A stretch of DNA of 64,000 nucleotides from an uncultured Anaerolineales bacterium (GTDB lineage Bacteria; Chloroflexota; Anaerolineae; B4-G1; SLSP01): positions 1,175 through 65,174 of the forward strand of contig CAZDDI010000005.1 of assembly GCA_964504195.1 (NCBI GenBank), written 5' to 3'. Shown here in pieces: positions 33,036 to 53,026 of the stretch; the stretch's first letter is position 1; every line of letters starts with the position of its first letter. Position numbers and translations under genes: made by a program. The notes beneath the pieces were generated by a model that saw nothing but the letters and a program-made list of their open reading frames with translations, was not told the origin of the DNA and searched no databases.

Positions 33036-33055
33036 GCTGTTTTTAGGAGAGAAAT

Positions 33056-34030: not shown

Positions 34031-34078
34031 TCGAATTCTTAAATGTTTCTAAATCAATGACCCAGGGAGTGTAAGAAC

Positions 34079-34321: not shown

Positions 34322-34355
34322 TCTTTCTCAGATTTAGATATTAAGGAGGGGAAAA

Positions 34356-35138
34356 ATGAGTTCCGCACAACTCAATTTTAGAGTTAACAAACCGGAGAAC
34401 ACAATCCGGATAGTATTTGTACATCATTCAACTGGGAGAAACCTAATACAACAGGGCGAAGTTCGGGAGTTAATGCAGACTCAAGCGTCGAGGACTGCGA
34501 TGCATTATGAATTTTGGGACCAAGACTATAACAAGATTGGTTTAAGTGATGCGTCTGGCAGCAAACTTGGGATAACTTTAAATATGCCAGGAGATAATAC
34601 TGACCCAGATGGGTTAGAAGCATTGTTTAGTCAACCAATTCATACTCCTCCAGACAATGCCTTAAGTGCTCTTCTCACTTTTGATGTGGTGATTTTCAAG
34701 TCTTGCTATCCAGTTTCAGCGATTCATAATGAGGAACAGTTGGAGCGTTACAAGCAGCACTATTTACGAATACGAGAGACCATGTTAGCAAATCCACAAA
34801 CCTTTTTTGTGGTTATGACTCCTCCTCCATTAATACCAAAACCATTTCCTGTATTTCCCGGGTCTTCTACTACACCAGAAGAAGCAAGGCGCGCAAGAGA
34901 GTTCGCAAATTGGTTAACGTCTGGAGAATTCATAGCAGAACTATCTAATGTTGCTGTTTTCGACTTTTTTGATTATTTAGCTGCGCCTGATGATTCTTCA
35001 AAACAAGCAAATATGCTCCGTGCAGAATATCGAAGCCTCTTAGGGTTTGATTCACACCCAAATTCGACCGCAAACAAAGCAGTCGCTCCGCTATTTGTGG
35101 ATTTTATCGTTAAAGGGATTCAACAATTCTTCAACTGA
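34356..35138 (+). CDS. SGNH/GDSL-hydrolase-like protein, cytoplasmic paralog (tentative fold call)
   Basis: AAGGAGGGG Shine-Dalgarno. Blocks VFVHHSTG, MPGDNTD (GxND-like) and DSHP (Asp/His-like) resemble the SGNH blocks I, III and V. Confidence 0.55.
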   Translation: MSSAQLNFRVNKPENTIRIVFVHHSTGRNLIQQGEVRELMQTQASRTAMHYEFWDQDYNKIGLSDASGSKLGITLNMPGDNTDPDGLEALFSQPIHTPPDNALSALLTFDVVIFKSCYPVSAIHNEEQLERYKQHYLRIRETMLANPQTFFVVMTPPPLIPKPFPVFPGSSTTPEEARRAREFANWLTSGEFIAELSNVAVFDFFDYLAAPDDSSKQANMLRAEYRSLLGFDSHPNSTANKAVAPLFVDFIVKGIQQFFN

Positions 35139-36058
35139 ATCTTCTTATAGCTAGCATTTTGTGACAACTCGTTTAGTTTTTAAGGATGTATTAGATGGTG
35201 AATAGTTCCATAAGTCAGGTTAAAAAAGCAAGATTACTATTTTTCACAATACTTTTGATAATTCTTTTCCTCTTAGGGCGAAGTTGGTTGCGTCCACAAG
35301 AGATATGGCCCTTTATTCTTAATGAAGGACAAAACAAACCGGAGAACACAATCCGGATAGTATTTGTACATCATTCAACTGGGAGAAACCTAATACAACA
35401 GGGCGAAGTTCGGGAGTTAATGCAGACTCAAGCGTCGAGGACTGCGATGCATTATGAATTTTGGGACCAAGACTATAACAAGATTGGTTTAAGTGATGCG
35501 TCTGGCAGCAAACTTGGGATAACTTTAAATATGCCAGGAGATAATACTGACCCAGATGGGTTAGAAGCATTGTTTAGTCAACCAATTCATACTCCTCCAG
35601 ACAATGCCTTAAGTGCTCTTCTCACTTTTGATGTGGTGATTTTCAAGTCTTGCTATCCAGTTTCAGCGATTCATAATGAGGAACAGTTGGAGCGTTACAA
35701 GCAGCACTATTTACGAATACGAGAGACCATGTTAGCAAATCCACAAACCTTTTTTGTGGTTATGACTCCTCCTCCATTAATACCAAAACCATTTCCTGTA
35801 TTTCCCGGGTCTTCTACTACACCAGAAGAAGCAAGGCGCGCAAGAGAGTTCGCAAATTGGTTAACGTCTGGAGAATTCATAGCAGAACTATCTAATGTTG
35901 CTGTTTTCGACTTTTTTGATTATTTAGCTGCGCCTGATGATTCTTCAAAACAAGCAAATATGCTCCGTGCAGAATATCGAAGCCTCTTAGGGTTTGATTC
36001 ACACCCAAATTCGACCGCAAACAAAGCAGTCGCTCCGCTATTTGTGGATTTTATCGTT
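34389..36058 (+). repeat. Tandem gene duplication: ~720-bp near-identical segments (34389-35110 and 35337-36058)
   Basis: Offset of ~948 bp. Identical antisense spurious ORFs at 34384..34623 and 35319..35570. Confidence 0.85.
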
Positions 36059-38532: not shown

Positions 38533-40019
38533 CGTTTTTTGACTTCGAATTTTTTCTTGTTCTTGTGTATAGACCCTACCCATCCCGCCGCCAGTAACAT
38601 GCACCGTTGGGTCGCTTAATAATATTGTTTGGCACGCAAAAAGTTATTCGTTAAGAAAAGTGGTAATTCTTTATGTGTAACTTTTTTGAGGGGGTTTTAC
38701 TAGGATATCTTGAAGCAGCATTTAGAGCATGGAAAGACATGTTATTTGAAGAATTCTCTTGAAAGAAGTTTTTCTGTTCACCATTGATTGTTGCGTTATG
38801 GGTAATTATTCTAGGTCCTATGGTTGTTCCCTGATGGTCACTACATATTAGACATTATCGGAAATAAGGATTTGCAACTTGAATCATAAAATGTTCATAG
38901 TAAATTTTTAGCAATATAATACAAGGTTGTATTTGCGGTGTACTCACCCCATTTTAAGCAGGGAACATACTCTTATTCTTGCGCTATCACATAAAAAAAC
39001 AATCTTTACTACAAAACCTTTCACAAGGTGTGCCCCGCGAGATTTATTGCCTCATTGTCACATTATCAAGGATATTTTAAGCGGTATTACCACAGATTTT
39101 TAAGAAATAGCGATGGAGTTCTTCATAGATTGCACAACTTGTTTATTTTATTGCGCAAGATAAGATATTTCGTTTTATTTTTAATTTGCGTGGAATATCA
39201 AAAAATTATTTAAGATAATGTCTATTGATTGGAGCCAGCGCAGTAGGAATGGAGCGGATTACCTTGAAACATGGAAAGCGTTATTACGAAAGCCTCCTAG
39301 TAAATTTATGCAAAAAGAAAGAGATACTAGATGGTTACTCAAAAAAAATAACTCGCTTCTTAAGTTGTGGAGATAATTAACAGCCACTGATATCAAACAG
39401 AGTTATGTGAATAGTTTCTCAAAGCGACAGATTTACATATCTAATTCTATATCAGATTAAGTAATAAATATAGTTTGCGTATTTTAAAAATAATCTTTAA
39501 ATGAAGAAAATCACAGTAATAGGAAGTGGTAATGTCGGCGGTTCTATAGCCCAACGGCTTGCAGATGCGGGGGGAGTTAATATTGTCCTGGTTGACAGAC
39601 TTGGGGATTTAGCGCGAGGAAAAAGCCTTGACCTTTATGAGTCCCTGCCCCTTATTGGTATAGATACTGATATCGTTGGTACTTCAAATTATGAGGAGAC
39701 AGCAGAATCGGATGTTGTAATCATCACAGCAGGCATTCCGCGCAAATCGAAAATGACGAGGAATGATTTACTGGATTCGAATGCGGAAATTGTTGCGGAG
39801 TGTGTATCGGCAGCTATCGAGTATTCTCCCAATAGTATTTTACTCATAGTAACTAACCCAGTATGTGCTATGTCTCATGTGGCTTACATCGCCAGCAAAT
39901 TCCCCAAACAACGTGTTATTGGGTTGTCTGGTTTGTTAGATACATCACGTATGAGAGCTTTTATAGCTACCGAAATTGGTGTTTCTGTGGAGAGCATTCA
40001 GGCACTTGTAATAGGTGAC

Positions 40020-41212
40020 CTAGCCACCGGACACTTTTTTCAAAAGTACGGTAGCCAGTAGATACGGAACGTCTCTTCATTGGTAATGTGGCGATTGACC
40101 ATCTCCAAACCAATGCGGAAAATGCTCAAATCCCGGCGGTCGGCCCGGTCGACCAGATACCGCTGACTGTTTTTGATGACCCGGGAACCATAGGCGATGA
40201 GCCACAGGTAGACCAAGACCACCCCTAAAGTCAGGCGGGAGAGGCGCAAAAAATGGCGGAGTTGGGTGCTTTCTAAATCAAAACCGTGCCCCTTGAGATC
40301 GCCAAACAGCTCCTCAATCCACATCCGTTTGCGGTACAAGCGCAAGGCTGCGCGGAGATCGGGAAAATTGGTCGCCAAGAGCCAGGGGTGAGCTTCTCCG
40401 GGCTGCCAATAAGCGGCCAGGTTGACGTGATAGGCGTGCTTGTGGGTCAGCTGGGCTTGGGGGTGCCACACCTGTTGGCGCCAGCGCGTGATCAGGGTTG
40501 CAAAGGGCTGCCACCCGCCCTGAGGCTGGACTTGGACCTGGGTATCGCGGGCTTGGCGCAAGACATATTTCCAACCCACGCGGTCTAACCATTTTAATAC
40601 CGCTACTGCGCCAAATTCACCGTCTCCCGCCAGATACACTTGTGCGCCGGCGGGCATTAAGCTGTGAACGTAGGCCAGCAAGGCTATTTGTTTCCGGCCA
40701 CTACTGTGCCCGCGCGGGCCTTGCACCCACGTCCAGGCGATAGGAATGGCCCGCCGCCGATAAGCGACTGCCACCATCAGCAGTTGGTGATTAAAGCCAA
40801 TTTTGCTGCCATCGAGCAACAACCGAATCGGCAGGCCCTGGGCGACGATTTCAGCCAAGATGTTTTCCGCGAGTGGGCGATACCAAGCGCGCACGCGAAT
40901 GGCCGGGTTGTCCAGCAGCCGGCGGATTTTGCGGGTCTTGCTGGGATTGGTGGCCGGGCCCGGAATTTCCTTCGCCACCTTGTACAGGTATACCGACCCG
41001 CAAAAGAACAGGCCCATCAAGAACTGGGCGAAGACTTTTAAGCGGCCCTGATGTTCATCCGGCAACCAGGTTGCCAAATCCGCGTGTAGTTGATGTGCTA
41101 ATTGACTGCGTGCATTCATAGAACCTCCTTGCAAGATTATGCTTATTTATAACCATATAATTATTGTTTATCTTTGTCAAGTCATTCCTGACAAAAAGTG
41201 TCCGGTGGCTAG
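40020..41212 (-). mobile_element. IS4-family insertion sequence (1193 bp) with 20-bp terminal IRs and 9-bp target-site duplication
   Basis: IRs are CTAGCCACCGGACACTTTTT at 40020 and the reverse complement ending at 41212. Direct repeat ATAGGTGAC at 40011-40019 and 41213-41221. Confidence 0.8.
40040..41134 (-). CDS. IS4-family DDE transposase
   Basis: YRKRMWIEELFGDLK matches the IS4 Y-x2-R-x3-E-x6-K signature. 364 aa. GC-rich. Confidence 0.8.
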   Translation of the reverse strand: MQGGSMNARSQLAHQLHADLATWLPDEHQGRLKVFAQFLMGLFFCGSVYLYKVAKEIPGPATNPSKTRKIRRLLDNPAIRVRAWYRPLAENILAEIVAQGLPIRLLLDGSKIGFNHQLLMVAVAYRRRAIPIAWTWVQGPRGHSSGRKQIALLAYVHSLMPAGAQVYLAGDGEFGAVAVLKWLDRVGWKYVLRQARDTQVQVQPQGGWQPFATLITRWRQQVWHPQAQLTHKHAYHVNLAAYWQPGEAHPWLLATNFPDLRAALRLYRKRMWIEELFGDLKGHGFDLESTQLRHFLRLSRLTLGVVLVYLWLIAYGSRVIKNSQRYLVDRADRRDLSIFRIGLEMVNRHITNEETFRIYWLPYF

Positions 41213-41955
41213 ATAGGTGACCATAGTGACAACATGCTACCCCTTACAAATTATTCCAATATTGCAGGTATTCCTCTCTCTGAGATAATGACCGGAGAAC
41301 AGATAGAGCGAGTTATAGTTCATACTAAAAATAGCGGAACCGAAATTGTAAATTTGTTAAAGACGGGAAGTGCTTATTACGCCCCTTCGGCTGCTGTGCT
41401 TGAGATCGTGGACTCCATTTTGAAAGACAAGAAAAAAATACTTCCTTGTGCGGTTTATCTAGAAGGCGAATTTGGAATCAATGATACCTTTATTGGGGTA
41501 CCGGCAAAAATCGGTAGGGGTGGTGTGGAACAAGTCTTCGAAATCATCCTTAGTATGGACGAAATAACATTGTTACAAAAGTCAGCGAATTCCATAAAGC
41601 AAATTGTTAATACACTAGGTCGGGTGGGGTGATGAAAGTGGTGGATCCAAACTGGGTCTTTAACTGCCTTCGGCGACGCGGGACGCGCCGCCGAAACTTG
41701 GATGAAACCGGCCAGCTCCTCGGCATGCAAGCGACTTTTGGCTGGCGACTTACCCGTCGCTTCATTCGACAGCTTTGCCCGCCACTTGCGCGCGCTGTGT
41801 GTGACTCAAAAACTAACTCAAGAGACCTGCTCTAGTGTACTGGACTTTCTATTCGAAAAAATCACTTTGCTATCACTCTCTATCCCATGCTACAATAAAA
41901 CCATAACACTGTAACCAACGCTCACCGCAGGAACCTCCATGCCTGCACATCCAAA

Positions 41956-42002
41956 GGGGAGGCCGCGACAATGCCCGGTATTGTTGCGACCTCCCCTTTT
42001 TT
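41956..42002 (+). terminator. Rho-independent terminator
   Basis: GGGGAGGCCGCGACAAT...ATTGTTGCGACCTCCCC followed by TTTTTT, at the right edge of the AT-rich island. Confidence 0.6.
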
Positions 42003-42035
42003 GTTGTCCCCAATCCCATACCCAGGAGTCACAAC

Positions 42036-42587
42036 ATGCCCAAAGTCATTCCCTTGCTCATCCTCATCGCCCTGGCCCTGCTCTGGCCCGGCTGCACCCC
42101 CACGCCGCCGCCCGGCGATGCCCTCCCCCCGCATCCCATCGTCGTCGCCACGCCCACGCCGGGCGCGGCGCAGCTCCGCGTCACCCGCGCTATCACCCAG
42201 GCCAATACGCCGCTGCCCACTGCAAGCAGCGCGCTGACCCTGACCGCGCCTCTGTCCTTGCATCTCGCGGTCCCGCCGCCCGGTATCCGCGTCATCGTCA
42301 CTGCCGAGGTGCAGAACACCGGCGCGGCTGCGCTCGCCCTGCCCCGCGCCGAGTTCACCCTGCACGATAACGCCGGGCAAGTCTACAGCCGCGATCGCGC
42401 CGCAGAACTGGCCCTGCTCGATACCCCGCTGCTCGCGGAGCACTCCCTGCCGCCCGGCGCACAAGCCACAGGCGCGCTGGTTTTCGCCGTCAGCCAGGAG
42501 TACGCGCCGCCGCTGCGCCTGGTAACGCGACTCCCCGGCAGCCCGCCGCTTATGTCCACCTCGTTCACGCTTGAGGAGGAGAACTGA
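42036..42587 (+). CDS. Lipoprotein (signal peptide + lipobox Cys), hypothetical
   Basis: MPKVIPLLILIALALLWPGC signal peptide. Pro/Ala-rich linker. CCAGGAG Shine-Dalgarno. Confidence 0.55.
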   Translation: MPKVIPLLILIALALLWPGCTPTPPPGDALPPHPIVVATPTPGAAQLRVTRAITQANTPLPTASSALTLTAPLSLHLAVPPPGIRVIVTAEVQNTGAAALALPRAEFTLHDNAGQVYSRDRAAELALLDTPLLAEHSLPPGAQATGALVFAVSQEYAPPLRLVTRLPGSPPLMSTSFTLEEEN

Positions 42588-42588
42588 G

Positions 42589-43248
42589 ATGCGCCACGTC
42601 CTGTGCATTGCCCCCCAAGAGAGTCAGGCCGAAGCCTTGAGCGCCGCCCTCGCCAGCGTGCCGGAGGTGCTGGTCGTCGGTATCTGTGATCCAGCGCAGG
42701 CCGCGCAACTGGCCCGCGTGGTCGGCGCGGATTTGCTCGTCGCCAGCCATGACGTAGCCTTGCCCGACACTGGTTTGCCCGTGTTCACTGCGCCGGAAGA
42801 TGCTGATCCGGCGGAAGCGTTGCAAGCCTACCTGGAAGCACACGCTAAGCCTGCGCCAGAATCTCCACCAGCGACACCCCGTCTGCCCTTTGCGCCGGTG
42901 ACGCGGCAAGTGCGCCTGGGCTTCTACGGCGTGCGCGGCGGCGTGGGCGTGACCACGGCTGCTGTCACCGCCGCCAAACTGCTGGCCGCACAGGGACAGC
43001 GCGTGGCGCTCTACGATGCCGCCCAACGCGGCGACCCGTACCTGCTGCTGGGCCTCACGCCGTCCGCTCAACCCGCCAGCGCGGAGGGGATCACGGTCTA
43101 CCCCGCGCTGCCCACCGCCGACGCTGAGGCCGCCGCGGCCAGCATCATTGATGGCGGACGGGAACGCCGGCTGTTTCCGGCGCGCTGGCTGGCGCTGGAG
43201 CACCCTCTGGCGGAAGCCGAAATTGCCAAACTGCTGGGATTAGCCTAA
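42589..43248 (+). CDS. CpaE/TadZ-like protein, degenerate (receiver-like N-domain + partial deviant P-loop)
   Basis: GVRGGVGVTT resembles the CpaE GxKGGVGKTT loop but the protein is short. GGAGGAG Shine-Dalgarno at MRHVL. Confidence 0.45.
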   Translation: MRHVLCIAPQESQAEALSAALASVPEVLVVGICDPAQAAQLARVVGADLLVASHDVALPDTGLPVFTAPEDADPAEALQAYLEAHAKPAPESPPATPRLPFAPVTRQVRLGFYGVRGGVGVTTAAVTAAKLLAAQGQRVALYDAAQRGDPYLLLGLTPSAQPASAEGITVYPALPTADAEAAAASIIDGGRERRLFPARWLALEHPLAEAEIAKLLGLA

Positions 43249-43256
43249 AACTCGAC

Positions 43257-43286
43257 TTGCATCCGCCCCCGGCGGTATGGTATAGT
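43257..43286 (+). promoter_or_regulatory. Sigma-70-like promoter with extended -10
   Basis: TTGCAT (43257-43262), 18-nt spacer, TGgTATAGT (43278-43286). Confidence 0.4.
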
Positions 43287-43292
43287 AAAAGA

Positions 43293-43487
43293 GGCGCGCA
43301 GGAACGGCCTGCGTCGCCCCGCGGGATGCCGTAAAGCGCACCCGTAATACACGCAGAGCGGGAATCCTACCAGCCCGCTGGCCCGGTGGCGCCGCGTAAA
43401 CCGCGCGCTCGGGCAATTCACTATAGGGGAGGCCCAGGACTGCCCGGAGTAATCCACTCCGGCACAGTCCGGGCCTCCCCATTTTTG
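43293..43487 (+). ncRNA. Candidate ~195-nt small RNA or terminated 5' leader (promoter to intrinsic terminator)
   Basis: Bounded upstream by the promoter above. Ends in a long hairpin GGGGAGGCCCAGGACTGCCCGGAGT-aatcc-ACTCCGGCACAGTCCGGGCCTCCCC (43427-43480) followed by ATTTTT. No credible ORF on either strand. Confidence 0.35.
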
Positions 43488-43529
43488 TAGCTATTCGCCA
43501 TCCAGTCCTGTTACGGAGTGTAGCCGGGG

Positions 43530-44081
43530 ATGTTATTGCTGAGCATCGGCGCCAAAGGCGGCTTAGGTACCACCACACTGGCCTATCAGATTAGCCAGTG
43601 CGCGGGAGCGCTGCCGCTGGACGCTGCCGACGGGCAACTGCTCCGGTGGGTGGGTGGGGCCGGCCTGGACCTGAGCGCCGTCCCGCAGTGGACCGCCAGC
43701 CGGCGCAGCCGCGCGGTCGAGCACCTCATCCGCACCCGGCCCGCGCTGCTGTGGACGCCCGCGTGTAACGTGTGGGCGGCGGCGGTGGCCGCCTTTGTGC
43801 GCGACCTGGCCGCCGTCGGGCACGTCAGTGTAGATGGCGGCCTGGCCCCGCCCGCGCCGCTGGTAGACCTGGCGACCGTCATCCTCATCGTCAGCAGCGA
43901 TGATCCAGTCGCACGCTGGCACGAACAACGCCTCAAACAACAGTGGCCGCAGGCGCGCGCCCTGGTCGGCGATGTCCAGGCCGCGGCGCCCGCCCTGGTG
44001 GAGCAATTACTGGGCGTCCCGCCGCGGCAAGCCTGGTGGAAGCAAGCCCGCTCCTGGCGGCCCACAGGGAAAAACGCCTGA
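43530..44081 (+). CDS. ParA/CpaE-like degenerate ATPase-domain protein
   Basis: N-terminal IGAKGGLGTTTLA deviant Walker A. 183 aa. Confidence 0.4.
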   Translation: MLLLSIGAKGGLGTTTLAYQISQCAGALPLDAADGQLLRWVGGAGLDLSAVPQWTASRRSRAVEHLIRTRPALLWTPACNVWAAAVAAFVRDLAAVGHVSVDGGLAPPAPLVDLATVILIVSSDDPVARWHEQRLKQQWPQARALVGDVQAAAPALVEQLLGVPPRQAWWKQARSWRPTGKNA

Positions 44082-44117
44082 ACCGGCTTTCCCTTTACGC
44101 AATAATCTGGAGGAAAT

Positions 44118-45029
44118 ATGCGCATTTTGAAATCCATTCAATTCTGGCTCGGTCTGCTCCTCGTCGGCGGGGCCTTTGTGGGCGTCCTGCTCTTCGCCCA
44201 ACTCACTACCCCGCCCACTTACGAAGTCGCCATTGCGACCCAGGACATCCCGGCGTATACCACGCTGCAAGACGCCTACACCTACGGCTACATTGTCTTG
44301 GATCGGCAGTCGTTCAGCCCGTCCTTGCTGCAAGTGGTGGTGTCGCCAGCCGCGCTGCAAGCCATGCTGGCCGATGGGGTCTTCGTCGAGACGGTGCGCG
44401 CGGGCGACGTGCTGAACCGGGGGCGCATCGCCACCGGGGAGAATGCGGAGAAAGTCCGCCGCCTGGCCCTGGCGCTCACTGACCCCGCGTTGGTCATCAA
44501 GTCCATCCCGGTCAGCGCCCAGAGCACGCCGTATATCGCCGTGGGCGATCTGGTAGACCTCTACGCGACGCTGGGCAGCGTGCGCGCCACGGAGTTAGCC
44601 ACAGCGACCGTGTTGCCCCTACCGCCCCACGTCACCCCACCGCCACCGACGCCCGCACCGCCACCAGATTTCGCGGTGTTGCTCCAGCCCGTGACCCTGA
44701 CGCTGCAATTGCCCGTGACCAAGCGGGTGGTGGGCGGAGCGCTGGTCGTCCGCGTCAACCGCGAGCAAATCCCGAATCCGCAGTACGGCGCGATGACCGC
44801 CGATGGGCAGGCCCCCGCGCCGTTCATCGCCGGCAACGTCATCAGCGTGGATGTGCTCGTCCCGGAGACCTCCGCTGAGGCGCTGGATTGGGCCGTGTTC
44901 AATGGCAAGATGTCCCTCGCCGTGCGGCCCGCGCTGTGGCGCGCGACGCTGGATGCCGGGCAAGCCCTGCCGGAGACGCCAGGATTCGCCTGGGAAGATT
45001 TCAATGCCGTGTTCTGGAGCGGCCGGTAG
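44118..45029 (+). CDS. cpaB: Flp pilus assembly protein CpaB/RcpC (N-terminal transmembrane + SAF domain)
   Basis: GGAGGAAATATG Shine-Dalgarno. N-terminal transmembrane segment, then the CpaB pattern IATQDIPAYTTL... Confidence 0.7.
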   Translation: MRILKSIQFWLGLLLVGGAFVGVLLFAQLTTPPTYEVAIATQDIPAYTTLQDAYTYGYIVLDRQSFSPSLLQVVVSPAALQAMLADGVFVETVRAGDVLNRGRIATGENAEKVRRLALALTDPALVIKSIPVSAQSTPYIAVGDLVDLYATLGSVRATELATATVLPLPPHVTPPPPTPAPPPDFAVLLQPVTLTLQLPVTKRVVGGALVVRVNREQIPNPQYGAMTADGQAPAPFIAGNVISVDVLVPETSAEALDWAVFNGKMSLAVRPALWRATLDAGQALPETPGFAWEDFNAVFWSGR

Positions 45030-45098
45030 TCTAGGTAGCCGGTAGTAGGTAAACGGTAGCAGGCAGACCGTCACTTCGTTTACCTTATTACCCTAATC

Positions 45099-45140
45099 CC
45101 GTCTACCGTCTACCGTCTACCGTCTACCGTCTACCGTGTA
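45099..45140. repeat. (CCGTCTA) heptamer tandem repeat, about 6 copies, 14 bp upstream of cpaE
   Basis: CCGTCTA x5 + CCGTGTA. Preceded (45030-45075) by several copies of the complementary CGGTAG motif, forming a mirrored arrangement. Confidence 0.85.
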
Positions 45141-45153
45141 CTGAGGAGCAGCC

Positions 45154-46521
45154 ATGGAACGCATCAAGATCGTCATTGGCACATCCGCCTGGGCCGACGC
45201 GCAAACGCTGGAACGCGCCCTGGCCGATACGCCGGAACTCCAGATCATCGCCGGGCCGACCACGGCTTCCGGCGTCTACCGCGACGCGACCGAGATGGAC
45301 GCCGATCTGGTGTTGCTTTCACCGACGTTGCCCGGTTTCCGACCCGACCTGGTGAGCGAGCTGCTGCACTCCGACGCCCGGCCCATTGCCAGTATTGGCC
45401 TGCTCGCGCCGCTGGAATCCCGCACCGACGAATTATTGGCGTTGGGCATGAAAGGCTACATCTCGCTGCCGCTCGACCCGGCCCAACTGCGCCGCCTGCT
45501 GGAACTCATCCCGGAAGCCGTCACCCAGGCCCGCGCCGAGCGCGCCAGCCGTAGTTACGTCCCGCTGGACACGCCCACGTTGCACACCGTCGCCGAGGCC
45601 GGCTGGCAACGCCTGGTCATCGCCCTGTGGGGCACCGGCGGCGGGGTGGGCAAAACCAGCCTGTCCATCAATTTGGCCGCGGCCCTGGGCGTACACGCCA
45701 AACGCAGTACCTTGCTCATGGATTTGGACATGACGCGCGGCGCGCTGGCCCCGCGATTGGGGCTGGTCCCGGAGCGCAACCTGTTCGCGTTGCTCAACGC
45801 CTTATTGCCCGATTACCTACGCCAGCAGAGCGGCAGTTGTCCGCCGCTGGCCCTCAAGGACAAGGTGCAACTGTGGGGCAGCGCCCGCGCTTCCAAACTG
45901 GACTGCCTGGGCGGGCTGCCGGCCATGCACATCGCGGGACTACCGCTCTTCCGGGAAGACCCGGCGCGCACGCAGGCATTACTCCGGGCGATCCTGGACA
46001 CCGCGCACAAGCAATATGATTTCGTGGTGCTGGACTTGGGGCCGGACATCAACAATGATGTACATTTTGCCGCGCTGGACGCCGCCGACCTGGTGCTCAC
46101 CGTGGTCCGCCCCGACCGGGCCGACATTTATTCCACGGCACAGACCGTGCCGCGCCTCAAGCAAGTCTTCGGCGAGGACATCGGCAAGTTCGAATTGGTC
46201 ATCAACCAGTGGAGCGAGGCCGCCGGCATCCGCTTGAAAGACCTGATTGCGGCCATCGGCATGAAGAAGTTCGCGCAAGTGCCCTACGACCCGGCCCTGA
46301 CCTACGCCAACAATCAACAGCGGCCCCTGGTGCTGGACAAGCCCAACCCCACGAGCGATGCCATCGTCTCAATGGCGGTGCGTTTTTTCCCGCCGCTGGG
46401 CCCGATCTGGGTGCGCCAGGGCGGGCGCGTCGAAGGCGACGCCGCCGCATTCAAAACGCCGGCGCGCCGCCCGGGGCCGGGCCTCTGGCAGCAAGTACGC
46501 GGCGTGTTCACGGAGAAGTGA
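45154..46521 (+). CDS. cpaE: CpaE/TadZ pilus-assembly ATPase-like protein (receiver-like N-domain + MinD/ParA-type domain)
   Basis: GTGGGVGKTSLSINLAAAL P-loop. 455 aa. Confidence 0.75.
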   Translation: MERIKIVIGTSAWADAQTLERALADTPELQIIAGPTTASGVYRDATEMDADLVLLSPTLPGFRPDLVSELLHSDARPIASIGLLAPLESRTDELLALGMKGYISLPLDPAQLRRLLELIPEAVTQARAERASRSYVPLDTPTLHTVAEAGWQRLVIALWGTGGGVGKTSLSINLAAALGVHAKRSTLLMDLDMTRGALAPRLGLVPERNLFALLNALLPDYLRQQSGSCPPLALKDKVQLWGSARASKLDCLGGLPAMHIAGLPLFREDPARTQALLRAILDTAHKQYDFVVLDLGPDINNDVHFAALDAADLVLTVVRPDRADIYSTAQTVPRLKQVFGEDIGKFELVINQWSEAAGIRLKDLIAAIGMKKFAQVPYDPALTYANNQQRPLVLDKPNPTSDAIVSMAVRFFPPLGPIWVRQGGRVEGDAAAFKTPARRPGPGLWQQVRGVFTEK

Positions 46522-46627
46522 TGCTTGTTGCTAGAAGCTGGTTGCTGGTATCCAGTCACGAGCATCGAGCAACCAGCATCCAGTAACAAGCAACGAGCAC
46601 CCAGTAACCAGCCTACAAGGAGTCCCT

Positions 46628-47962
46628 ATGTCCCAACCTTCCGCCTTTGCCCAACGGGTGGCCGCGCAAGCGACCACCCAGCAAGCCGATCCCTACGCGG
46701 GCTTGCTCGCCGCCGCGCGGGAACGCCTGGCCGCGCAGTTCAGCCTGGAAGCCCTACGCGCGCCCACCGCCGCACAGGAACAAGAAGCCGAGACCGCGTT
46801 GCGCGCTCTCGTCGCAGCCCAGGTCGCCAGCGCCGTCCAACAGGGGCGCCCCTTCGCCGAGAGCGGCGAACAGCTCCTGCTGCGTTTGCAATACGACATC
46901 TTCGGCTACGGGGTCATTACCCCGTATCTGAATACGCCCACCGTCGAGGAAATCATGATCAACGGCCCGGATGTGATCTGGATTGACGATGCGGAGCGAG
47001 GGATGTACCGCGCCAGCGCGCGCTTCGCCCATGCCCGCGAGGTGCAAAAACTGGTAGACCGCATCGCGGCGCGGCATGGCCGGCGCTTTGACCGCTCCAA
47101 TCCGCGCGTCAATGCCAAGATGCCCGATGGCAGTCGCCTGAACGCCGTGCTCGAACCGTTGGTAGACAACGTCCCCATCGCGGTCACCATTCGCCGCCAC
47201 CGCCTGGTGGCGCGCACGCTGGCCGACCTGGTGGAACTGGGCACGCTCACCGCCGAAGTCGCCGGGTTCTTGCAAGCCAGCGTCCTGGGCCGCCTGAACA
47301 TCATCGTGGCGGGCGGCACGGGGTCGGGTAAGACCAATACCCTCAACGCGCTGTGCGCGGTCTTGCCCCCGGAGGAGCGCGTCGTCACCGTCGAAGACAC
47401 GCCGGAGCTGCAATTGGCGCGGGACAACTGGCTGGCATTGGTCACTACCGAAGAAACCGAAGAAGGCCAGCGGGCCATTACCCTGGATGACCTGATCATC
47501 AACGCGCTGCGGATGCGGCCTGACCGCATCGTGACCGGCGAGGCGCGCGGCGCGGAAATCCGCTCGGTCTTGATGGCCGCCAACACCGGCCATGATGGGC
47601 AACTGCTCACCCTGCACGCCAACGGCGTCCACGAGATCGCCAGCCGGGTGGGGCAGATGTGGCAGTTGGCCGACTCCGGCATGGCCCCCGGCGTGGTCAC
47701 GCGCTATCTGGTGGATGCCTTCGACCTGGTGCTCTACATCGAGCGCATCACCGTGGCCGGGCAACGCCGCCGCGTCGTGCGGCAGGTAGCCGAACTCCTG
47801 CCCGCTCGCCAGATGGAAGGCGACACGCCCGCCGTGAATGTTCTGTGGCAGGATACCGGGAGTGGCTTGCAGTGGACGGGCCTGTATCCCGAAACCCTGG
47901 AAGAGCGCATCCGCCAGCACACCGGGCAGCGCGCTAATCTGCGCCAATATCTCAAGAGGTAG
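46628..47962 (+). CDS. cpaF: CpaF/TadA secretion ATPase (VirB11/GspE superfamily)
   Basis: Walker A IIVAGGTGSGKTNTLNAL. VTVEDTPEL. His-box GHDG. 444 aa. Confidence 0.85.
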   Translation: MSQPSAFAQRVAAQATTQQADPYAGLLAAARERLAAQFSLEALRAPTAAQEQEAETALRALVAAQVASAVQQGRPFAESGEQLLLRLQYDIFGYGVITPYLNTPTVEEIMINGPDVIWIDDAERGMYRASARFAHAREVQKLVDRIAARHGRRFDRSNPRVNAKMPDGSRLNAVLEPLVDNVPIAVTIRRHRLVARTLADLVELGTLTAEVAGFLQASVLGRLNIIVAGGTGSGKTNTLNALCAVLPPEERVVTVEDTPELQLARDNWLALVTTEETEEGQRAITLDDLIINALRMRPDRIVTGEARGAEIRSVLMAANTGHDGQLLTLHANGVHEIASRVGQMWQLADSGMAPGVVTRYLVDAFDLVLYIERITVAGQRRRVVRQVAELLPARQMEGDTPAVNVLWQDTGSGLQWTGLYPETLEERIRQHTGQRANLRQYLKR

Positions 47963-47966
47963 CCCG

Positions 47967-48899
47967 ATGTTCAAACGCAAAATGCCCTTGTGGGTCGTCA
48001 TCGCCACGCGGCAACGCCAAGTCCCGGAAGCCCTGGACGCCGCCCTGGCGCAATTGAGCGCGGTGCAGCTGGAACGCCGGGAAGCGCTGAGTTGCAGCGG
48101 GGCGTACCGCGCGCTCGCGGGCGCACACTTAGCGATTGTAGATACTGCCGACCTGCGCGCGGATGCCGCTGCTCCGGCGCTGGCAGTCGCCTTGCAGAGT
48201 CCCGGGCTAGTCGTCGTAGACAGCGCGACCTTCCTGGCCGCGCCGCTGCACTATCTGGAATTGGCCGCCGCCGCGCGCGGGTTGGGCGGGGTGTGGCCGC
48301 CGCGGCGCGGGGCATTCACGGCGCTGGCGGGGGGCGTGGGCAAGACGACGCTGGCCCTGGCGACCGCGCAGGCTTTTCACCGCGCAACGGGGTTGGCGGC
48401 GGTGGTCATCGAACTCAGCCCCGGCCCGGCGGCGCTGCTGGCCGTGACCGAAACGTCCGGGGCCGATCTGTACCAGATCATCACGCAAGGCGCGCCGTAT
48501 CCAGTGTGGCGCGGGGTGACGCTGGCCCCGCTGAACTGGGAGACCGCGCGGTTGCTCCCCACGGCGCAACTGACCGCGGCCTGGGAGGCGTTGGCGGCGC
48601 AGCATATCTTGACGCTTTACGATGCGCCGGCCGGGCATCCGTTGTGGGAACACGTCCAGGCGGACCTGACCCTGGTGCTGGCCGACCACCGCCCCGACGC
48701 GCAAGCCGCCGCCGTAGCAGTGGTGGCGCAGGTCCGCGCGCGGGGGCAGGCAGCGGCCCTGGTGCTCAACCGCGCGGGGCTGGGAGGGCGCTTAGCCCTG
48801 CCCGAAGCGCCCGTGGTGACCCTGGCCGCGGCGCGCGACCCGCAGCGCTGCGGCGCGCAACTCTTGCCGGCCCTCTATCCGGGCTGGCGGCGACGCTAA
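47967..48899 (+). CDS. Additional CpaE/ParA-like protein
   Basis: ALAGGVGKTTLALA deviant Walker A. Start at MFKRKM is internal to the listed ORF 47838. Confidence 0.5.
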   Translation: MFKRKMPLWVVIATRQRQVPEALDAALAQLSAVQLERREALSCSGAYRALAGAHLAIVDTADLRADAAAPALAVALQSPGLVVVDSATFLAAPLHYLELAAAARGLGGVWPPRRGAFTALAGGVGKTTLALATAQAFHRATGLAAVVIELSPGPAALLAVTETSGADLYQIITQGAPYPVWRGVTLAPLNWETARLLPTAQLTAAWEALAAQHILTLYDAPAGHPLWEHVQADLTLVLADHRPDAQAAAVAVVAQVRARGQAAALVLNRAGLGGRLALPEAPVVTLAAARDPQRCGAQLLPALYPGWRRR

Positions 48900-49108
48900 A
48901 ACATGCCGGAGGGAGTGGATGTTCCCTATACCTGTCTGGTTAATGCAGCTCCCCTTACGGGGCGCGGGGCTCGTCGCGCCGGGCCCGGAGCTGCCCCCTT
49001 TTGGGAGTCCGCCGGTGCTCATCCGGCTGGTGCTGGTGACGCTAGGGGCGCTGGGGGGCAGTTTCCTGCTCGGCGTGGGGTTAGCGGCGGGTTTCCCGGA
49101 GGATACCG

Positions 49109-50134
49109 ATGAGTCATAAGAGTCAAGCCGTACTCGGGTGTCTGGCGCTGCTGCTGGCGGCGCTGAGCGGGTATGCGGTGTGGCGGTTTTTCGACCGCTT
49201 GACGCTGACTACTACGCTGCCCGTGCCCAACCAGGCCATTCCCGCCGGGGCCTGGATTGAGGCCGGGATGCTCACGGAACGGGTGGTGCCGCGCGCGCTG
49301 GCCGCTGAGCCGGTGTATACCCGCGCCGCCGACCTGGTGGGCCGGGTCGCGCAGGTGCCGCTGTATCCGGGGCTGGTGGTGTACCAGGCGTATGCCGTGC
49401 CGCCGGCGCAGTACCGCCTGGTAGCCGATCCGACGCTAACGGTGATCTCCCTCCCCGTAGACCCGGCGCGGGCCGTGGGCGGGCAGCTGCAACCGGGACA
49501 CCAGATTGACCTGTGGCAAGTGCCGCTGGCGCGCGCCGGGGCCGCCGGGGAGGCCCCGCGCCTGACGCCGACGCTGGTGCTGAGCGCGGTGCAAGTCGTG
49601 GACGTGCGCGGGGCGTCCGGGCAGGCCGTGGCCCGCCAACCGCAGGCCGTGCCGGGGCAGGCGGCGGGGCAGAGTGCGCCTGCGGGGGCCGCTTTGCCGC
49701 TGCATATTCTGACTGTGGCCGTGCCGGTGTCGCAAACGCAGCCGCTCTTGAGCCTCATCGCCGCAGAGCACTCCCAGCAGGCCGCGCTGTGGGTAGCCCT
49801 GGCGCCGCTGGTGCGTCCGGCGGGGCCGGCGGCGGCGCTGCCGCCGAGTACCCCGCCCCCGCCCGGGGCCAGTCTCGCGCCGCCGGCCGCGCTGCCGGGA
49901 ATGCCCCGGTTAGTGGTGCGCCAGGTGCTGGGCACGGCGGGCGGCGGGAGCGCGGTATATGAGCGCCCCGGCGGGCCCCAAGTGGGAGAGTTGCCCGCGG
50001 GCGCGCTGGTCATAGTGCTGACCGGGCCGCAGCCGGACGCGGGGGGCGAGCTGTGGTATCACGTCACGCAACACGGCAGCCAGGCGGTCAGCGGCTGGAT
50101 GCGCGGGCCGGCGCTCAGTGCGGAGGAGCCCTGA
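49109..50134 (+). CDS. Second CpaB/RcpC-like protein with Pro/Ala-rich linker and C-terminal SH3-like tail
   Basis: GGAGGATACCG Shine-Dalgarno. N-terminal transmembrane segment. The TLTTTLPVPNQAIPAGAWI pattern parallels the first cpaB. Confidence 0.6.
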   Translation: MSHKSQAVLGCLALLLAALSGYAVWRFFDRLTLTTTLPVPNQAIPAGAWIEAGMLTERVVPRALAAEPVYTRAADLVGRVAQVPLYPGLVVYQAYAVPPAQYRLVADPTLTVISLPVDPARAVGGQLQPGHQIDLWQVPLARAGAAGEAPRLTPTLVLSAVQVVDVRGASGQAVARQPQAVPGQAAGQSAPAGAALPLHILTVAVPVSQTQPLLSLIAAEHSQQAALWVALAPLVRPAGPAAALPPSTPPPPGASLAPPAALPGMPRLVVRQVLGTAGGGSAVYERPGGPQVGELPAGALVIVLTGPQPDAGGELWYHVTQHGSQAVSGWMRGPALSAEEP

Positions 50135-51369
50135 TGTTACTGGACGCCACCCTGGTAGAAACGCTGCGCACCTACATTTTGGAGCGTGGGCTGGCCGTGC
50201 CGGGCTGGGGCAGTAGCGCGGCTGAATTGCGCGCTTTCGAGGGGGCGCTGGCCGAGGCGCTGGTGCAACTGCGCCTGGCGTCCCAGGTCGCGGCGGTGCC
50301 GGAAGCCGCTCACCACCTGGCCCGGCGCTTGACGGGGGTGGGGATCTTGCAGCCCTTGCTGGACGATCCCACCGACACGCTCCAGGAAATCATCGTGCGT
50401 GACGGTTGGGTGCAAGTAGAGCGGCAGGGCGTCATCCAGGAGCTCGGGGCCCTGGCACCGGACGCGGAGTTCGCGGCGCTGATTGCGCGGACCAGTGATT
50501 TGGCGCGGCGGCAGACGACCGGCGCGCGCCCGTATGTGCTGGTGGACTTGCCCGACGGGGCGCGGTTCACCGCCTTGCTGCCGCCCTTGTCGGCGCAGGG
50601 CAGCGCGATCAATATACGCCGTTTTCCGCGCGCGCGCCTAGACCTGACAGCACTGGTCGCGCAGGGGTTCTTTGCCCCCGCGCCGCCGCCAGTGGGGGCA
50701 GCGTTCCCGGCCGTTACCGGGCAGCCCGTGGCGGACTATCTGGCGACGCTGGCCCAAACCGGCAGCGCCTCGCTGTTGATCTCCGGCGAATTCTCGGCGG
50801 GCAAGTCCACGCTCTTGGGCGCGCTGGCCTCCCTACTGCCCGCGACCACCCAGGTAGCGGTGGTGGAGACCTTTAAAGAATTGCCGCTGGCGCACCCGCA
50901 CCCGCTGCGCGTGGTGGTGCCAGGCGACCGGGCGGACTTTCCCAGTATGGACGAGGTGCTCAACGTCGTCATCACGCGGATGCGCCCGGACCTGCTCATT
51001 GTGGGGGAAATTGTGCGCGCCGAGGCGCCGCGATTTCTCGAAGCGGTTAATTTGGGGAAACGCGCCTGGGCCACGATTCACGCCGGGAGCGCCCTGGGCG
51101 CGCTCTACCGGCTGGAGACCAAAGCCCTGAGCAGCGGGCTGCCCCACCCGGCCGTGCGCGAGCAGTTGGCCCAGAGTGTGGACCTGGTGATCCATTTGGC
51201 CCGGGAGGGCGGCGCGCGGCGCATCGCTGAAGTCGCGCTGGTCCGGGGCTTGACGCCGGCCGGCGGGTATGACTTGCAGTATCTCCCGGTCGGGCGCGTC
51301 CCGGAACGGAGCGCGGGGCTGGTTGCCCTGTGGGCGCGCGGCAGCGCGGCGGCGGAGGGCCGGGCATGA
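50134..51369 (+). CDS. Second CpaF/TadA-family secretion ATPase
   Basis: Walker A LLISGEFSAGKSTLLGAL. VETFKELPL. ATGA overlap with the upstream gene. Confidence 0.8.
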   Translation: MLLDATLVETLRTYILERGLAVPGWGSSAAELRAFEGALAEALVQLRLASQVAAVPEAAHHLARRLTGVGILQPLLDDPTDTLQEIIVRDGWVQVERQGVIQELGALAPDAEFAALIARTSDLARRQTTGARPYVLVDLPDGARFTALLPPLSAQGSAINIRRFPRARLDLTALVAQGFFAPAPPPVGAAFPAVTGQPVADYLATLAQTGSASLLISGEFSAGKSTLLGALASLLPATTQVAVVETFKELPLAHPHPLRVVVPGDRADFPSMDEVLNVVITRMRPDLLIVGEIVRAEAPRFLEAVNLGKRAWATIHAGSALGALYRLETKALSSGLPHPAVREQLAQSVDLVIHLAREGGARRIAEVALVRGLTPAGGYDLQYLPVGRVPERSAGLVALWARGSAAAEGRA

Positions 51370-52241
51370 GCCCCGGGCTGTACTGGTTGGCGCGGCTGCT
51401 CCCGCCGGGCTTAGCTGCCCTCGGCGCGGGGCTGTTGGCGTATGTTGCGCTGAGCGTCCTGGAGTCCGCCGGACGCGGACTGCGGCGGCGGTACGGGCGG
51501 CTGCGCTGGACGCCCACGCCTACCGGCGGGGAATTGCAGGTGGGGGCGCGGCGCGTGCTGGTGACGCCCAGCCGGTTGCTGCCGTTAGGGCTAGGGCTGG
51601 GCCTGGCCCTGCTGTGGCGCACGCCCCTGTTCGCCGCCTGGACGCTGCTGCTGGGCGGGATCGCTACCGGCCTCACGCAGGCCGCGCGGCCCCGCGTCAC
51701 CCTGGCGGGGCGCGCGCAGCAAGAATTGTTCTTGAGCGCCCTGCATAGCCGGTATGCCGTGGCACAATCGCTGGCCGCGGCGCTGGCCGGCGCGGCGCTG
51801 GATTTGGAAGACCCTACGGCGGAGTTGGTGCTGGCCGTGAGCGAGAGCGGCCGCCGGGTGCGCCTGGGCCTGCCGCTGCCCCTGGCGCTGCGCCCGCTGG
51901 CCGTTCAGGGGGGCTTATTGCAGCGGCTGGCCACGGTCTTGAGCCACGCCCCCGGCGCGGCGGCCGCCGAAACCCACGCCCTGCTGGAGAGCCTGATGGC
52001 GGCGGCGCGGCAACAACGCCACCGGGCTGCCCGCGCGCAAGTGACGCTGACCGTGGTGCGGCTGACCTGGCGCGTCCTGGTAACCGTCAATGTGCTCGCC
52101 GCGGCCCTGAGCGCGCTGCTCCCGGCCTGGCGCAGTTATTATCTGGCGCACCCCACGCCGTACCTGCTGAGTACCGCGCTGGCGCTGGGCGGCTATGGCT
52201 ACTTGCGGTTCCAGAGCCAAGCCCTGGAGGATAGCCTGTGA
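51366..52241 (+). CDS. tadB: TadB-like inner-membrane platform protein (T2SS-F type)
   Basis: Polytopic membrane protein in the canonical position after cpaF. ATGA overlap. Confidence 0.55.
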   Translation: MSPGLYWLARLLPPGLAALGAGLLAYVALSVLESAGRGLRRRYGRLRWTPTPTGGELQVGARRVLVTPSRLLPLGLGLGLALLWRTPLFAAWTLLLGGIATGLTQAARPRVTLAGRAQQELFLSALHSRYAVAQSLAAALAGAALDLEDPTAELVLAVSESGRRVRLGLPLPLALRPLAVQGGLLQRLATVLSHAPGAAAAETHALLESLMAAARQQRHRAARAQVTLTVVRLTWRVLVTVNVLAAALSALLPAWRSYYLAHPTPYLLSTALALGGYGYLRFQSQALEDSL

Positions 52242-53026
52242 GCTGGGCCGGGATCCCGGCACTGAGCGCTGCCCTGGGGGTGCTGAGTCTCACCCTGGCG
52301 CTGGGCCGCACCGGAAACGCCCTCTGGCGCGCGCACCGCCGCCGGCGCCACTGGCTAACGGGGCCCGCGGGGCCGCCGCCGGTGACCGCCGCGGAGCTCT
52401 ATGGGCTGGCGCCGTTACTGCCCTGGCTGCTGGGGACGGCGCTCTTGGGTGGGGCAGTGGCCTACACCCTGTTCGTGGGGCCGGCGCGCTATCTAGGGCC
52501 GTTAGCCGCCCTGGCGCCCCTGTTCTGGCAACGCGCGCGCCGCCGCGCCGGGCAACGGCAGATCCGGCAGGAAGTGCTGGAGTTGCTGGAAACCTTGCGC
52601 CTCTATGGCGCGTTAGCGCCCACGCCGGGCGCGGCGTTGGCCCTGGCGTTGGCCGAGGCGCGCCCCGGCCAGTTATGGGCGCGGCTGCGCGCCCACCGGG
52701 AGGTGTTGGCGTTGGCGGGCCCCGAGGCGCTCTTGCGCACGGTGGCCGGGGAAGTGGCGTCCCCCGAACTGCGGCGGCTGGTGAGCCGGGTGCGCGCGGC
52801 CCAGGCCGGGAACACCGCCCTGGCGCGCGCTTTGCAGGCGGCGACGGACGAATTAGTGGCAGAGGTACACCGGGAGCTGGAAGAAATGGTGGAGGCCGCG
52901 CCGCCGCGGTTGCTCCTGCCCAGCCTGGTGCTGCTCTTGCCCCCCGCGCTGGTGGTGGTCTTGACCCCGCCAGTGCAAGCCCTCTTGGACACGCTGGCAG
53001 GCGCGGGTCCGGGGCTGGGGCGGTAA
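52238..53026 (+). CDS. tadC: TadC-like inner-membrane platform protein
   Basis: Polytopic membrane protein. GTG start overlapping the upstream stop. Confidence 0.55.
   Translation: MSWAGIPALSAALGVLSLTLALGRTGNALWRAHRRRRHWLTGPAGPPPVTAAELYGLAPLLPWLLGTALLGGAVAYTLFVGPARYLGPLAALAPLFWQRARRRAGQRQIRQEVLELLETLRLYGALAPTPGAALALALAEARPGQLWARLRAHREVLALAGPEALLRTVAGEVASPELRRLVSRVRAAQAGNTALARALQAATDELVAEVHRELEEMVEAAPPRLLLPSLVLLLPPALVVVLTPPVQALLDTLAGAGPGLGR

Follow-up and report, generated by a model that had tools for sequence, protein, structure and literature searches.

A promoter-to-terminator RNA unit at a Tad-like locus of an Anaerolineales bacterium belongs to an uncatalogued family of structured RNAs

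In the window analyzed here, a stretch of 64,000 nucleotides (nt) from an uncultured Anaerolineales bacterium (NCBI GenBank assembly GCA_964504195.1, contig CAZDDI010000005.1), the region at 43257-43487 lies between two genes of a Tad-like pilus locus and carries a promoter-like sequence followed by a hairpin. The question it raises is whether it encodes an RNA, and whether that RNA would act in trans or as a terminated leader of the genes that follow. We identified this region, hereafter the focal unit, as a real promoter-to-terminator RNA unit that belongs to an uncatalogued family of structured RNAs, of which the window holds three copies. The focal unit contains the following elements:

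43257-43286, + strand: promoter; -35 element TTGCAT at 43257-43262, 18-nt spacer, TG at 43278-43279, -10 element TATAGT at 43281-43286
43293-43318, + strand: hairpin P1', GGCGCGCAGG-AACGG-CCUGCGUCGCC, present in both the minimum free energy and the centroid fold
43321-43345, + strand: hairpin P2', from fold prediction
43357-43379, + strand: hairpin P3, the family signature; stem GCGGG/CCCGC at 43358-43362/43374-43378, 11-nt loop AAUCCUACCAG at 43363-43373
43381-43414, + strand: hairpin P4', a variable helix from fold prediction; strong covariation in the family at the corresponding P4
43426-43486, + strand: P5, predicted intrinsic terminator; hairpin GGGGAGGCCC...GGGCCUCCCC at 43426-43480, followed by A+UUUUU at 43481-43486

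The original prediction described the promoter as near-consensus. This is apt for the -10 element, which agrees at five of six positions and carries the TG extension, but too generous for the -35 element, which agrees with TTGACA at only three of six; for this reason a generic promoter scan of the window does not list the promoter. The window has a single match to a degenerate form of the promoter block, shuffled sequences have none, and the spacer between the -35 and -10 elements contains an inverted repeat, CCGCC..GGCGG. The stop codon of the upstream gene (43248) is 8 nt from the -35 element. The hairpin follows the -10 element by 139 nt and the T-tract is 43 nt from the next ATG (43530). 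A perfect 24-bp hairpin with ATTTTT had been reported about 140 nt beyond the promoter; the hairpin, the ATTTTT and the distance are correct, but the stem has 23 base pairs (10+6+7) and is not continuous, with a 1-nt bulge and an internal loop (1x2) beneath a 5-nt loop. Because of these interruptions P5 was not picked up by a terminator scan of the window.

The transcript is predicted to start near 43293, approximately 7 nt past the extended -10 element, and the approximately 190 nt after the promoter form a non-coding, strongly structured RNA. The predicted fold of a 198-nt transcript model (43293-43490) consists of five hairpins in series and has a free energy of -109.9 kcal/mol, compared with -81.4 +/- 4.7 kcal/mol for dinucleotide shuffles (z = -6.0; none of 200 shuffles equals it). 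The long open reading frames (ORFs) over the region are antisense only (43240-43578 and 43245-43457), and they align at the protein level to orthologous loci only across a short stretch that overlaps the promoter. No ORF is conserved on either strand of the leader, as the earlier statement that no plausible ORF is present had it. A conserved short ORF with a Shine-Dalgarno (SD) sequence inside the leader, as expected of a leader-peptide attenuator, was not found, and the AUG in J4/5 of some family members is ACA in others.

The unit is retained in relatives, a check that had been proposed for it. In the five loci that carry the closest relatives of the downstream 183-amino-acid gene (L007, L008, L012, L014 and L056; 64-74% protein identity), it is located between the same two genes. 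Three blocks are kept, namely the promoter, P3 and the terminator, and the remainder diverges in sequence and varies in length. L007, L008, L012 and L014 share the promoter block GACTTGC...CGGTnTGnTATAGT. The P3 hairpin of the orthologues reads GCGGG-AAnCCUUCAnG-CCCGC and their terminator GGGGAGG...CCUCCCC-UUUU. In L007 both stems show compensatory changes (GCAGG/CCUGC in P3 and GGGAAGG/CCUUCCC in the terminator), and this locus folds into the same five hairpins as the focal unit (z = -7.4). Its hairpin at the P1' position has the stem CAGC/GCUG instead of CAGG/CCUG, and the one at the P2' position is of unrelated sequence. In L009, L010 and L011, which are more distant relatives, the flanking genes directly adjoin or overlap each other, so that the RNA unit represents an insertion in a single clade. 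An alignment of six sequences of the window clade with MAFFT and RNAalifold misaligned P3 of the window and was left out of the results.

Two further non-coding elements were observed at these loci. An additional conserved stretch of approximately 150 nt (GTCTGTTTCCTCAGTATACCTGAAACTGTTCC...) occurs upstream of the RNA promoter in L008 (1-150) and L012 (2540-2700) and is absent from the window. In L009 a long imperfect hairpin (GGGAGUAAGAAGUAGGGAGUAGGGG...CCUCCCCCCUACUCCCUACUUCUUAC) is found at 1690-1760, between the 187- and 310-amino-acid genes of a related cluster. This hairpin lacks P3 and a U-tract and is not a family member; a match at L009 1642-1756 to the family model described below was rejected on the same grounds.

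We searched for further examples with a pattern that joins the P3 loop to the terminator ends GGGRAGG...CCTYCCC. This pattern occurs twice in the window, compared with 0.00 matches expected from shuffles. A scan of one genome per species of Bacteria and Archaea returned 45 stretches, 19 of which are true units with U-tracts; the rest are chance matches in coding DNA of other phyla. All 19 come from metagenome-assembled genomes (MAGs) of Chloroflexota (Anaerolineae, Pelolinea, Thermoflexus and 'Chloroflexia'), with up to six per MAG. The same scan of JGI metagenomes added 74 loci, and the family totals 77 distinct sequences from Chloroflexota, mostly of the class Anaerolineae and often several to a genome. 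The pattern has no match among IMG/VR viral contigs, and blastn found no match in PLSDB plasmids to either the common form or the focal unit. Rfam 15 gave no match at gathering threshold in the whole window, and only noise (at most 17 bits) around the focal unit at E <= 10; over the window, the focal locus and eight loci of the common form, at gathering and permissive thresholds, its yield was noise and one tRNA. An Rfam scan, with the c-di-GMP riboswitches as an example, had been proposed as a check; no known riboswitch or other Rfam family matched, the c-di-GMP classes included, and a literature search found no description of the family.

The common form of the motif consists of P1, GAAAAGGUCU, P2, GAAC, P3 (7 bp, loop AAGCCUUCAAG), GCG, P4, AAAUGAAA, and P5 with its U-tract. 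When 75 sequences are aligned to the model, 97.9% of the cells at paired positions can pair. Double changes occur in 28 of 44 pairs, compared with 14.1 +/- 1.5 in shuffles (none of 500 reaches 28) and 11-12 with slid partners, and these counts are inflated by an alignment fitted to the model and by many close relatives (effective sequence number 1.51). Compensatory changes are found in all five helices, with double changes at all six pairs of P4. The P3 stem varies in a compensatory manner across the family (GCAGG/CCUGC, GUAGG/CCUAC), and in P5 the outer stem GGGGAGG/CCUCCCC is retained and the inner stem covaries. The best-conserved unpaired element is the P3 loop, AANCCUNC..G, which has the variants CCUUC, CCUAC and CCUCC. 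The pattern requires both this loop and the GGGRAGG/CCTYCCC stem, which makes their apparent invariance partly circular; only the short copies found by the model (at 41.9 kb in the window and at the cluster head in L056) escape this circularity. P3 and the terminator are all that the long and short forms have in common.

Inverted repeats in the promoter spacer also vary in a compensatory manner. They were noted in the window (43263-43280), in L008, L012 and L014, and in promoters of the common form, and read CCGCC..GGCGG, CCGGC..GCCGG or CCGCA..TGCGG, with CCATG..CATGG in the common form. Such a repeat may be an operator for a DNA-binding regulator.

A covariance model, R1, was built from 69 sequences with the window and its clade excluded. 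It recovers the syntenic orthologues of the focal unit with E-values of 7e-21 (L014), 3e-17 (L008), 4e-14 (L012), 2e-13 (L056) and 2e-12 (L007), and it recovers both other copies in the window:

41867-42002, + strand: second copy, a short form at the head of the cluster; R1 match 41876-42001, 23.9 bits, E = 2.6e-5; fold z = -6.7
41867-41896, + strand: promoter of the second copy, TTGCTA-N18-(TG)TACAAT, from the promoter scan
41927-41946, + strand: P3 of the second copy, GCAGG-AACCUCCAUG-CCUGC
41953-42002, + strand: terminator of the second copy, AAAGGGGAGGCC...GACCUCCCCUUUUUU
1843-2116, + strand: third copy, in DNA of 41% GC; R1 match 1961-2114, 59.7 bits, E = 3.7e-15
1843-1872, + strand: promoter-like sequence of the third copy, TTGCAT-N18-TACAAT
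2021-2045, + strand: P3 of the third copy, GUAGG-AAACCUUCAAG-CCUAC, with the family loop; P3 motif match 2026-2040
2066-2113, + strand: terminator of the third copy, an inverted repeat with perfect 22-bp arms AAAAGGGGAGGAUUUAGAACGC/GCGUUCUAAAUCCUCCCCUUUU and the same terminator ends

The other copies are too diverged for blastn, which found no second copy of the focal locus in the window, and were detected by motif and model only. The focal unit itself receives only local matches from R1 (see below), as its 5' hairpins and P4 are too diverged for a full-length match. It does have a P3 stem closing an 11-nt loop of the family pattern AANCCUNCNNG (stems in the family are 5-7 bp), a terminator with the outer stem GGGRAGG/CCUYCCC and a U-tract at the family distance of 25-55 nt past P3, five serial hairpins P1-P5, its own extended -10 promoter, and a same-strand ORF after the terminator.

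R1 also matches the antisense strand at 30-48 bits. These matches were rejected as members, being the palindromic terminator read backwards. The P5 hairpin of most members, and that at 2066-2113, is nearly symmetric (A-tract, GGGGAGG...CCUCCCC, U-tract), and as judged from this arrangement it could stop transcription from both directions. Past the terminator of the third copy, nested inverted repeats (2130-2148/2332-2350 and 2240-2258/2311-2329) form a hairpin-rich insert of approximately 220 nt. The insert (2130-2350), which may be a MITE-like insertion (MITE, miniature inverted-repeat transposable element) or another RNA, precedes a 68-amino-acid ORF (2553-2759) whose start resembles a small ORF located directly behind the RNA in L111.

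The position of the motif relative to genes is consistent. A same-strand SD sequence and ORF follow the terminator in 67 of 72 distinct contexts, mostly at 21-35 nt, and at least five unrelated gene families are represented among these ORFs. The distance from terminator to start codon is only 20-45 nt, which leaves no room for another promoter, and the downstream genes would therefore have to be transcribed through the terminator. The most frequent context, with 28 loci, is the head of a Tad-associated cluster (RNA, DUF4352 lipoprotein, 243-amino-acid P-loop-like protein, 186-amino-acid P-loop-like protein, 315-amino-acid protein, CpaE-like protein). This is also the setting of the second copy in the window, directly after which the SD sequence and ATG (42036) of a DUF4352/DUF3426 lipoprotein gene (by Pfam) open the cluster. 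In 11 loci the RNA is followed by small ORFs, a helix-turn-helix protein and a large serine recombinase. Elsewhere the RNA lies ahead of FtsK/SpoIIIE or Replic_Relax genes, or behind a tRNA-linked tyrosine integrase. The large serine recombinase genes, found within or beside the Tad-associated cluster in L011 (5868-6264) and at the far end of RNA-headed small-ORF operons in L041 (1707-3434) and L036, suggest that both kinds of cluster belong to integrative elements; the link to mobile elements is drawn solely from neighboring integrase, recombinase, FtsK and relaxase genes. The promoter moves with the RNA, and the block ACTCGACTTGCA upstream of the -35 element is common to the focal unit, L007, L095 and L098. 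We therefore describe the family as a portable promoter-leader-terminator module ahead of accessory operons.

On this evidence we favor, at roughly even confidence, the reading that the module gates downstream operons through antitermination that depends on a factor recognizing P3. Transcription of the focal unit would start near 43293, and the nascent RNA would fold into P1'-P4'. The majority of polymerases would halt at the strong terminator P5 and release an RNA of approximately 190 nt, and the 183-amino-acid gene and the Tad genes behind it (the 303-amino-acid gene, CpaE, CpaF and others) would be expressed only upon read-through of P5, which would be the point of control. A trans-acting factor, most likely a protein, would bind the P3 hairpin with its AANCCUNC..G loop on the nascent RNA and cause the polymerase to ignore P5. 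The short copy at 41.9 kb would gate the first two genes of the cluster in the same way. The orthologous position and the same-strand gene downstream favor a terminated leader, as originally suggested, but one that is not specific to pilus genes or to this site.

Antitermination by a factor is preferred because no alternative antiterminator pairing is conserved, and recognition of P3 fits because only P3 and the terminator are shared by the long and short forms. An alternative antiterminator fold, for which a check had been advised, was looked for in folds of truncated transcripts. The 5' arm of the terminator has no consistent partner in these folds: the 3' arm of P2 serves in 26 of 77 sequences, the P3 loop in approximately 12, and nothing does so in the focal unit. 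This weakens the classical attenuator or riboswitch picture. Likewise, the P3-loop variants CCUAC and CCUCC covary with no partner. Three specific pairings were considered and not adopted. A pseudoknot between AAGGU of J1/2 and GCCUU of the P3 loop is conserved in the common form, never covaries, and is absent from the focal unit and the short forms. Pairing of the P3 loop with the terminator base (CCUU:AAGG; in the focal unit CCUA:UAGG) seemed compensatory but is contradicted by the cluster-head copy of L056, which has CCUAC with AAAGG. Pairing of the loop with GGAGG of the terminator arm fails as a general rule, since it is mismatched in the CCUAC variants.

Several points weigh against gating by a P3-binding factor or against the place of the focal unit in the family. 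A phmmer search of 7072 ORFs in approximately 1.1 Mb of family loci, of low sensitivity, found no NusG/RfaH paralogue, and clustering of neighboring genes over the family contexts found no gene common to all. Trans-acting small RNAs (sRNAs) just as typically combine a strong promoter and a strong terminator with multiple copies and a conserved loop rich in pyrimidines. The inflation of the covariation counts and the partial circularity of the pattern belong here as well. The focal unit has no significant full-length R1 score, its local matches being P3 (43358-43378, 11.8 bits) and P5 (8 bits); it is a divergent member, a placement drawn from synteny and from the significant scores of its orthologues. 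Promoter activity, the 3' end and termination, read-through and its control, and the nature of the effector are all read from sequence rather than from transcripts.

If the unit were instead the gene of a trans-acting sRNA, which we regard as somewhat unlikely, the terminated transcript of approximately 190 nt would be the product, its anti-Shine-Dalgarno-like P3 loop would pair with the ribosome-binding sites of targets, and read-through would be incidental or a second function. The unit's own promoter and strong terminator agree with this, as does the conservation of the P3 loop above all other unpaired elements in an RNA with no conserved antiterminator fold. Several copies per genome with a common loop and otherwise variable helices also resemble the LhrC, csRNA and RsaE families, which are multi-copy sRNAs with CU-rich loops. 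However, a free-acting RNA does not account for the tight, constant spacing to a same-strand SD sequence and ORF in 67 of 72 contexts, before unrelated gene families and with no space for a promoter, nor for units inside or heading operons that require transcription across them. Position 7 of the loop, moreover, varies (U/A/C) with no identifiable co-varying target. The order of promoter, structured conserved RNA, terminator and gene is equally that of a riboswitch, and multiple copies per genome before pilus and other genes, as observed here, are typical of second-messenger riboswitches. In a new small-molecule class of this kind, for example one for c-di-GMP, a ligand bound to P1-P4 would decide whether P5 forms. 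The conserved unpaired stretches of the common form (J1/2 AAAAGGUC and the P3 loop), with their possible pseudoknot AAGGU:GCCUU/ACCUU, would suit an aptamer, and a mobile element needs an effector available in every host, for which a universal metabolite would qualify. We nevertheless consider a riboswitch unlikely: no Rfam riboswitch matches even at E <= 10, the hairpins stand independently in a row and no helix closes them, and the short forms retain just P3 and the terminator, too little for an aptamer. In addition, the candidate pseudoknot is conserved without covariation and is absent from the focal unit, no consistent expression-platform switch is seen, and the downstream genes are neither metabolic nor transport genes.

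The module might also sense nothing, with a constitutive promoter and a leaky terminator setting the ratio of short RNA to downstream transcript and stabilizing the 5' end of the mRNA. Our searches identified neither effector nor switch and the module is portable over many contexts, both of which agree with such unregulated punctuation. Yet covariation in P1-P4 and a conserved P3 loop would be superfluous for a plain promoter and terminator, and GC stems of such great length with U-tracts would be expected to terminate efficiently instead of leaking, which makes this explanation quite improbable. Hairpins and spurious ORFs are common in GC-rich DNA, and a chance promoter-like string with a hairpin in a spacer, or an unannotated small protein gene, might be invoked on that ground. 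This is scarcely credible given conservation in orthologues with compensatory changes, 0.00 expected pattern matches, model matches across the family, covariation, and ORFs that are not conserved. A more ambitious reading, which we put forward only tentatively, is that the family is the RNA half of an undescribed antitermination or sensing system (a new hairpin-dependent processive antitermination mechanism or a new class of riboswitch, perhaps for a second messenger), carried as a plug-in cassette by integrative elements and horizontally transferred Tad islands, whose operons would be gated by a host-wide signal.

Among known systems, the LoaP leaders of the dfn and mln operons of Bacillus velezensis consist of a small conserved hairpin and an intrinsic terminator ahead of long operons (PMC12691694). 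The Anaerolineae family likewise places a hairpin and a terminator before long operons of a horizontally acquired type, with further terminators inside the operon, and control by read-through rather than by an alternative RNA fold is what we propose from the sequences for it. However, the LoaP hairpin is a UNCG tetraloop, whereas the Anaerolineae family has an 11-nt AANCCUNC..G loop, four extra covarying hairpins, a promoter that travels with it, and hosts of a different phylum. No gene for LoaP or another NusG paralogue was found near any family member in the low-sensitivity search.

The boxB element of the lambda nut site, HK022 put and the Bacillus EAR RNA are cis-acting structured antitermination RNAs that let polymerase pass terminators. 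They too lie just after a promoter or between early operon genes in mobile or accessory DNA; EAR follows the second gene of its operon and precedes the third, an arrangement shared by the focal unit. In contrast, these elements have no integral, conserved and adjacent strong terminator, they share no sequence or Rfam similarity with the family, and no IMG/VR contig carries the family motif. The c-di-GMP-I and c-di-GMP-II riboswitches (the GEMM families of Rfam) are terminator-ended leaders present in multiple copies per genome, often before pilus genes. The family resembles them in all three respects, but no covariance model of these riboswitches matches it at any threshold, and its serial hairpins form neither a tetraloop-receptor pair nor a kink-turn pseudoknot core. 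Listeria LhrC1-5, the streptococcal csRNAs and RsaE/RoxS are multi-copy sRNAs with CU-rich, anti-SD-like loops. Paralogous copies in one genome, an own promoter and terminator, and a conserved pyrimidine-rich loop are common to them and to the family, but their genes are free-standing, whereas the family is fixed 21-35 nt before a gene and carried in operons or mobile elements. In the conjugative plasmids pCF10 (prgQ/Anti-Q) and pIP501 (RNAIII), attenuation is driven by a countertranscript. There, as is proposed for our loci, an intrinsic terminator closes the leader of an operon on a mobile element, and its use sets the expression of transfer or replication genes. However, this mechanism needs an antisense promoter within the leader, and none is conserved in the Anaerolineae family.

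Terminator-ended regulatory leaders are as such a known kind of element; the novelty lies in the present family, in the signature that defines it and in its spread as a module. Filamentous Anaerolineae are dominant in anaerobic digesters and activated sludge, and we know of no work on the regulation of Tad clusters or mobile elements in Chloroflexota. The Tad/Flp pilus clusters of Anaerolineae are conserved, highly transcribed and linked to cell aggregation (PMC4877987). A defined signature, made up of the P3 loop and the GGGGAGG terminator, marks a testable, putative regulatory element before pilus and mobile-element operons. R1 allows the family to be annotated, and the P3 hairpin offers a handle toward the effector. 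The whole promoter-leader-terminator unit travels as one module, either to a cluster head or into the space between cluster genes, which bears on how horizontally acquired operons carry their own control.

The genes around the focal unit place it in a Tad-like locus, as the original prediction had stated, with CpaE, CpaF, RcpC and T2SSF genes assigned by Pfam:

42571-43248, + strand: upstream gene, 225 amino acids, with a weak ParA/CbiA-type P-loop
43530-44081, + strand: downstream gene, 183 amino acids, with a P-loop-like N-terminus in which GKT is changed to GTT
44118-58284, + strand: Tad-like locus behind the focal terminator, beginning with the 303-amino-acid gene (Pfam)
45154-46521, + strand: CpaE-like ATPase (AAA_31/CbiA; Pfam)
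46628-47962, + strand: CpaF/T2SSE (Pfam)
49109-50134, + strand: RcpC/CpaB-like; E = 2.3e-5 and 24.7 bits, under the Pfam gathering cut-off of 28.8
50053-51369, + strand: second T2SSE (Pfam)
56363-57385 and 57382-58284, + strand: two T2SSF genes (Pfam)

The locus thus holds the genes of a Tad (Flp) pilus, namely a CpaF-type ATPase, a CpaE-type ParA/MinD ATPase, RcpC/CpaB and T2SSF (TadB/TadC). It contains two T2SSE-family ATPase genes (46628-47962 and 50053-51369), and three large ORFs between the T2SSE and T2SSF genes (51330-52241, 52195-53250 and 54901-56436) have no Pfam match. The description of the two genes flanking the focal unit as degenerate cpaE-like finds less support. P-loop matches of the 225-amino-acid upstream protein in the Pfam search are below threshold, and the N-terminus of the 183-amino-acid family compared with the Walker-A region of a CpaE-like protein gives an hhalign probability of 66% and no significant BLASTP match. 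To judge from these comparisons, both are at best degenerate P-loop proteins. The 183-amino-acid protein occurs with the same neighbors on metagenomic contigs from several independent assemblies, and its homologues are labeled Anaerolineae wherever a name is given.

The window is a mosaic of GC content. Segments at 2001-4000 (43%), 30001-36000 (39-40%) and 41200-41600 (approximately 40%) contrast with 4001-14000 (64-68%) and 42001-62000 (65-73%). Segments near 40% GC carry housekeeping genes, including an AMP-binding enzyme (29542-31032), asparagine synthase (31050-33035), NAD synthase (33056-34030) and Ldh/Mdh, and the segments of 65-72% GC carry a primase, an AAA_25 protein, NB-ARC/STAND NTPases, giant ORFs and the entire Tad locus. 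From this mosaic, the Tad locus is therefore placed on acquired DNA that begins directly after the dehydrogenase gene, and the composition points to a host of low GC content that has acquired large islands of high GC. The junction between low and high GC recurs in independent assemblies. The lactate/malate dehydrogenase gene is itself interrupted by an insertion sequence, with Ldh_1_N at 39501-40061, DDE_Tnp_1 at 40040-41134 on the - strand, and Ldh_1_C at 41234-41632.

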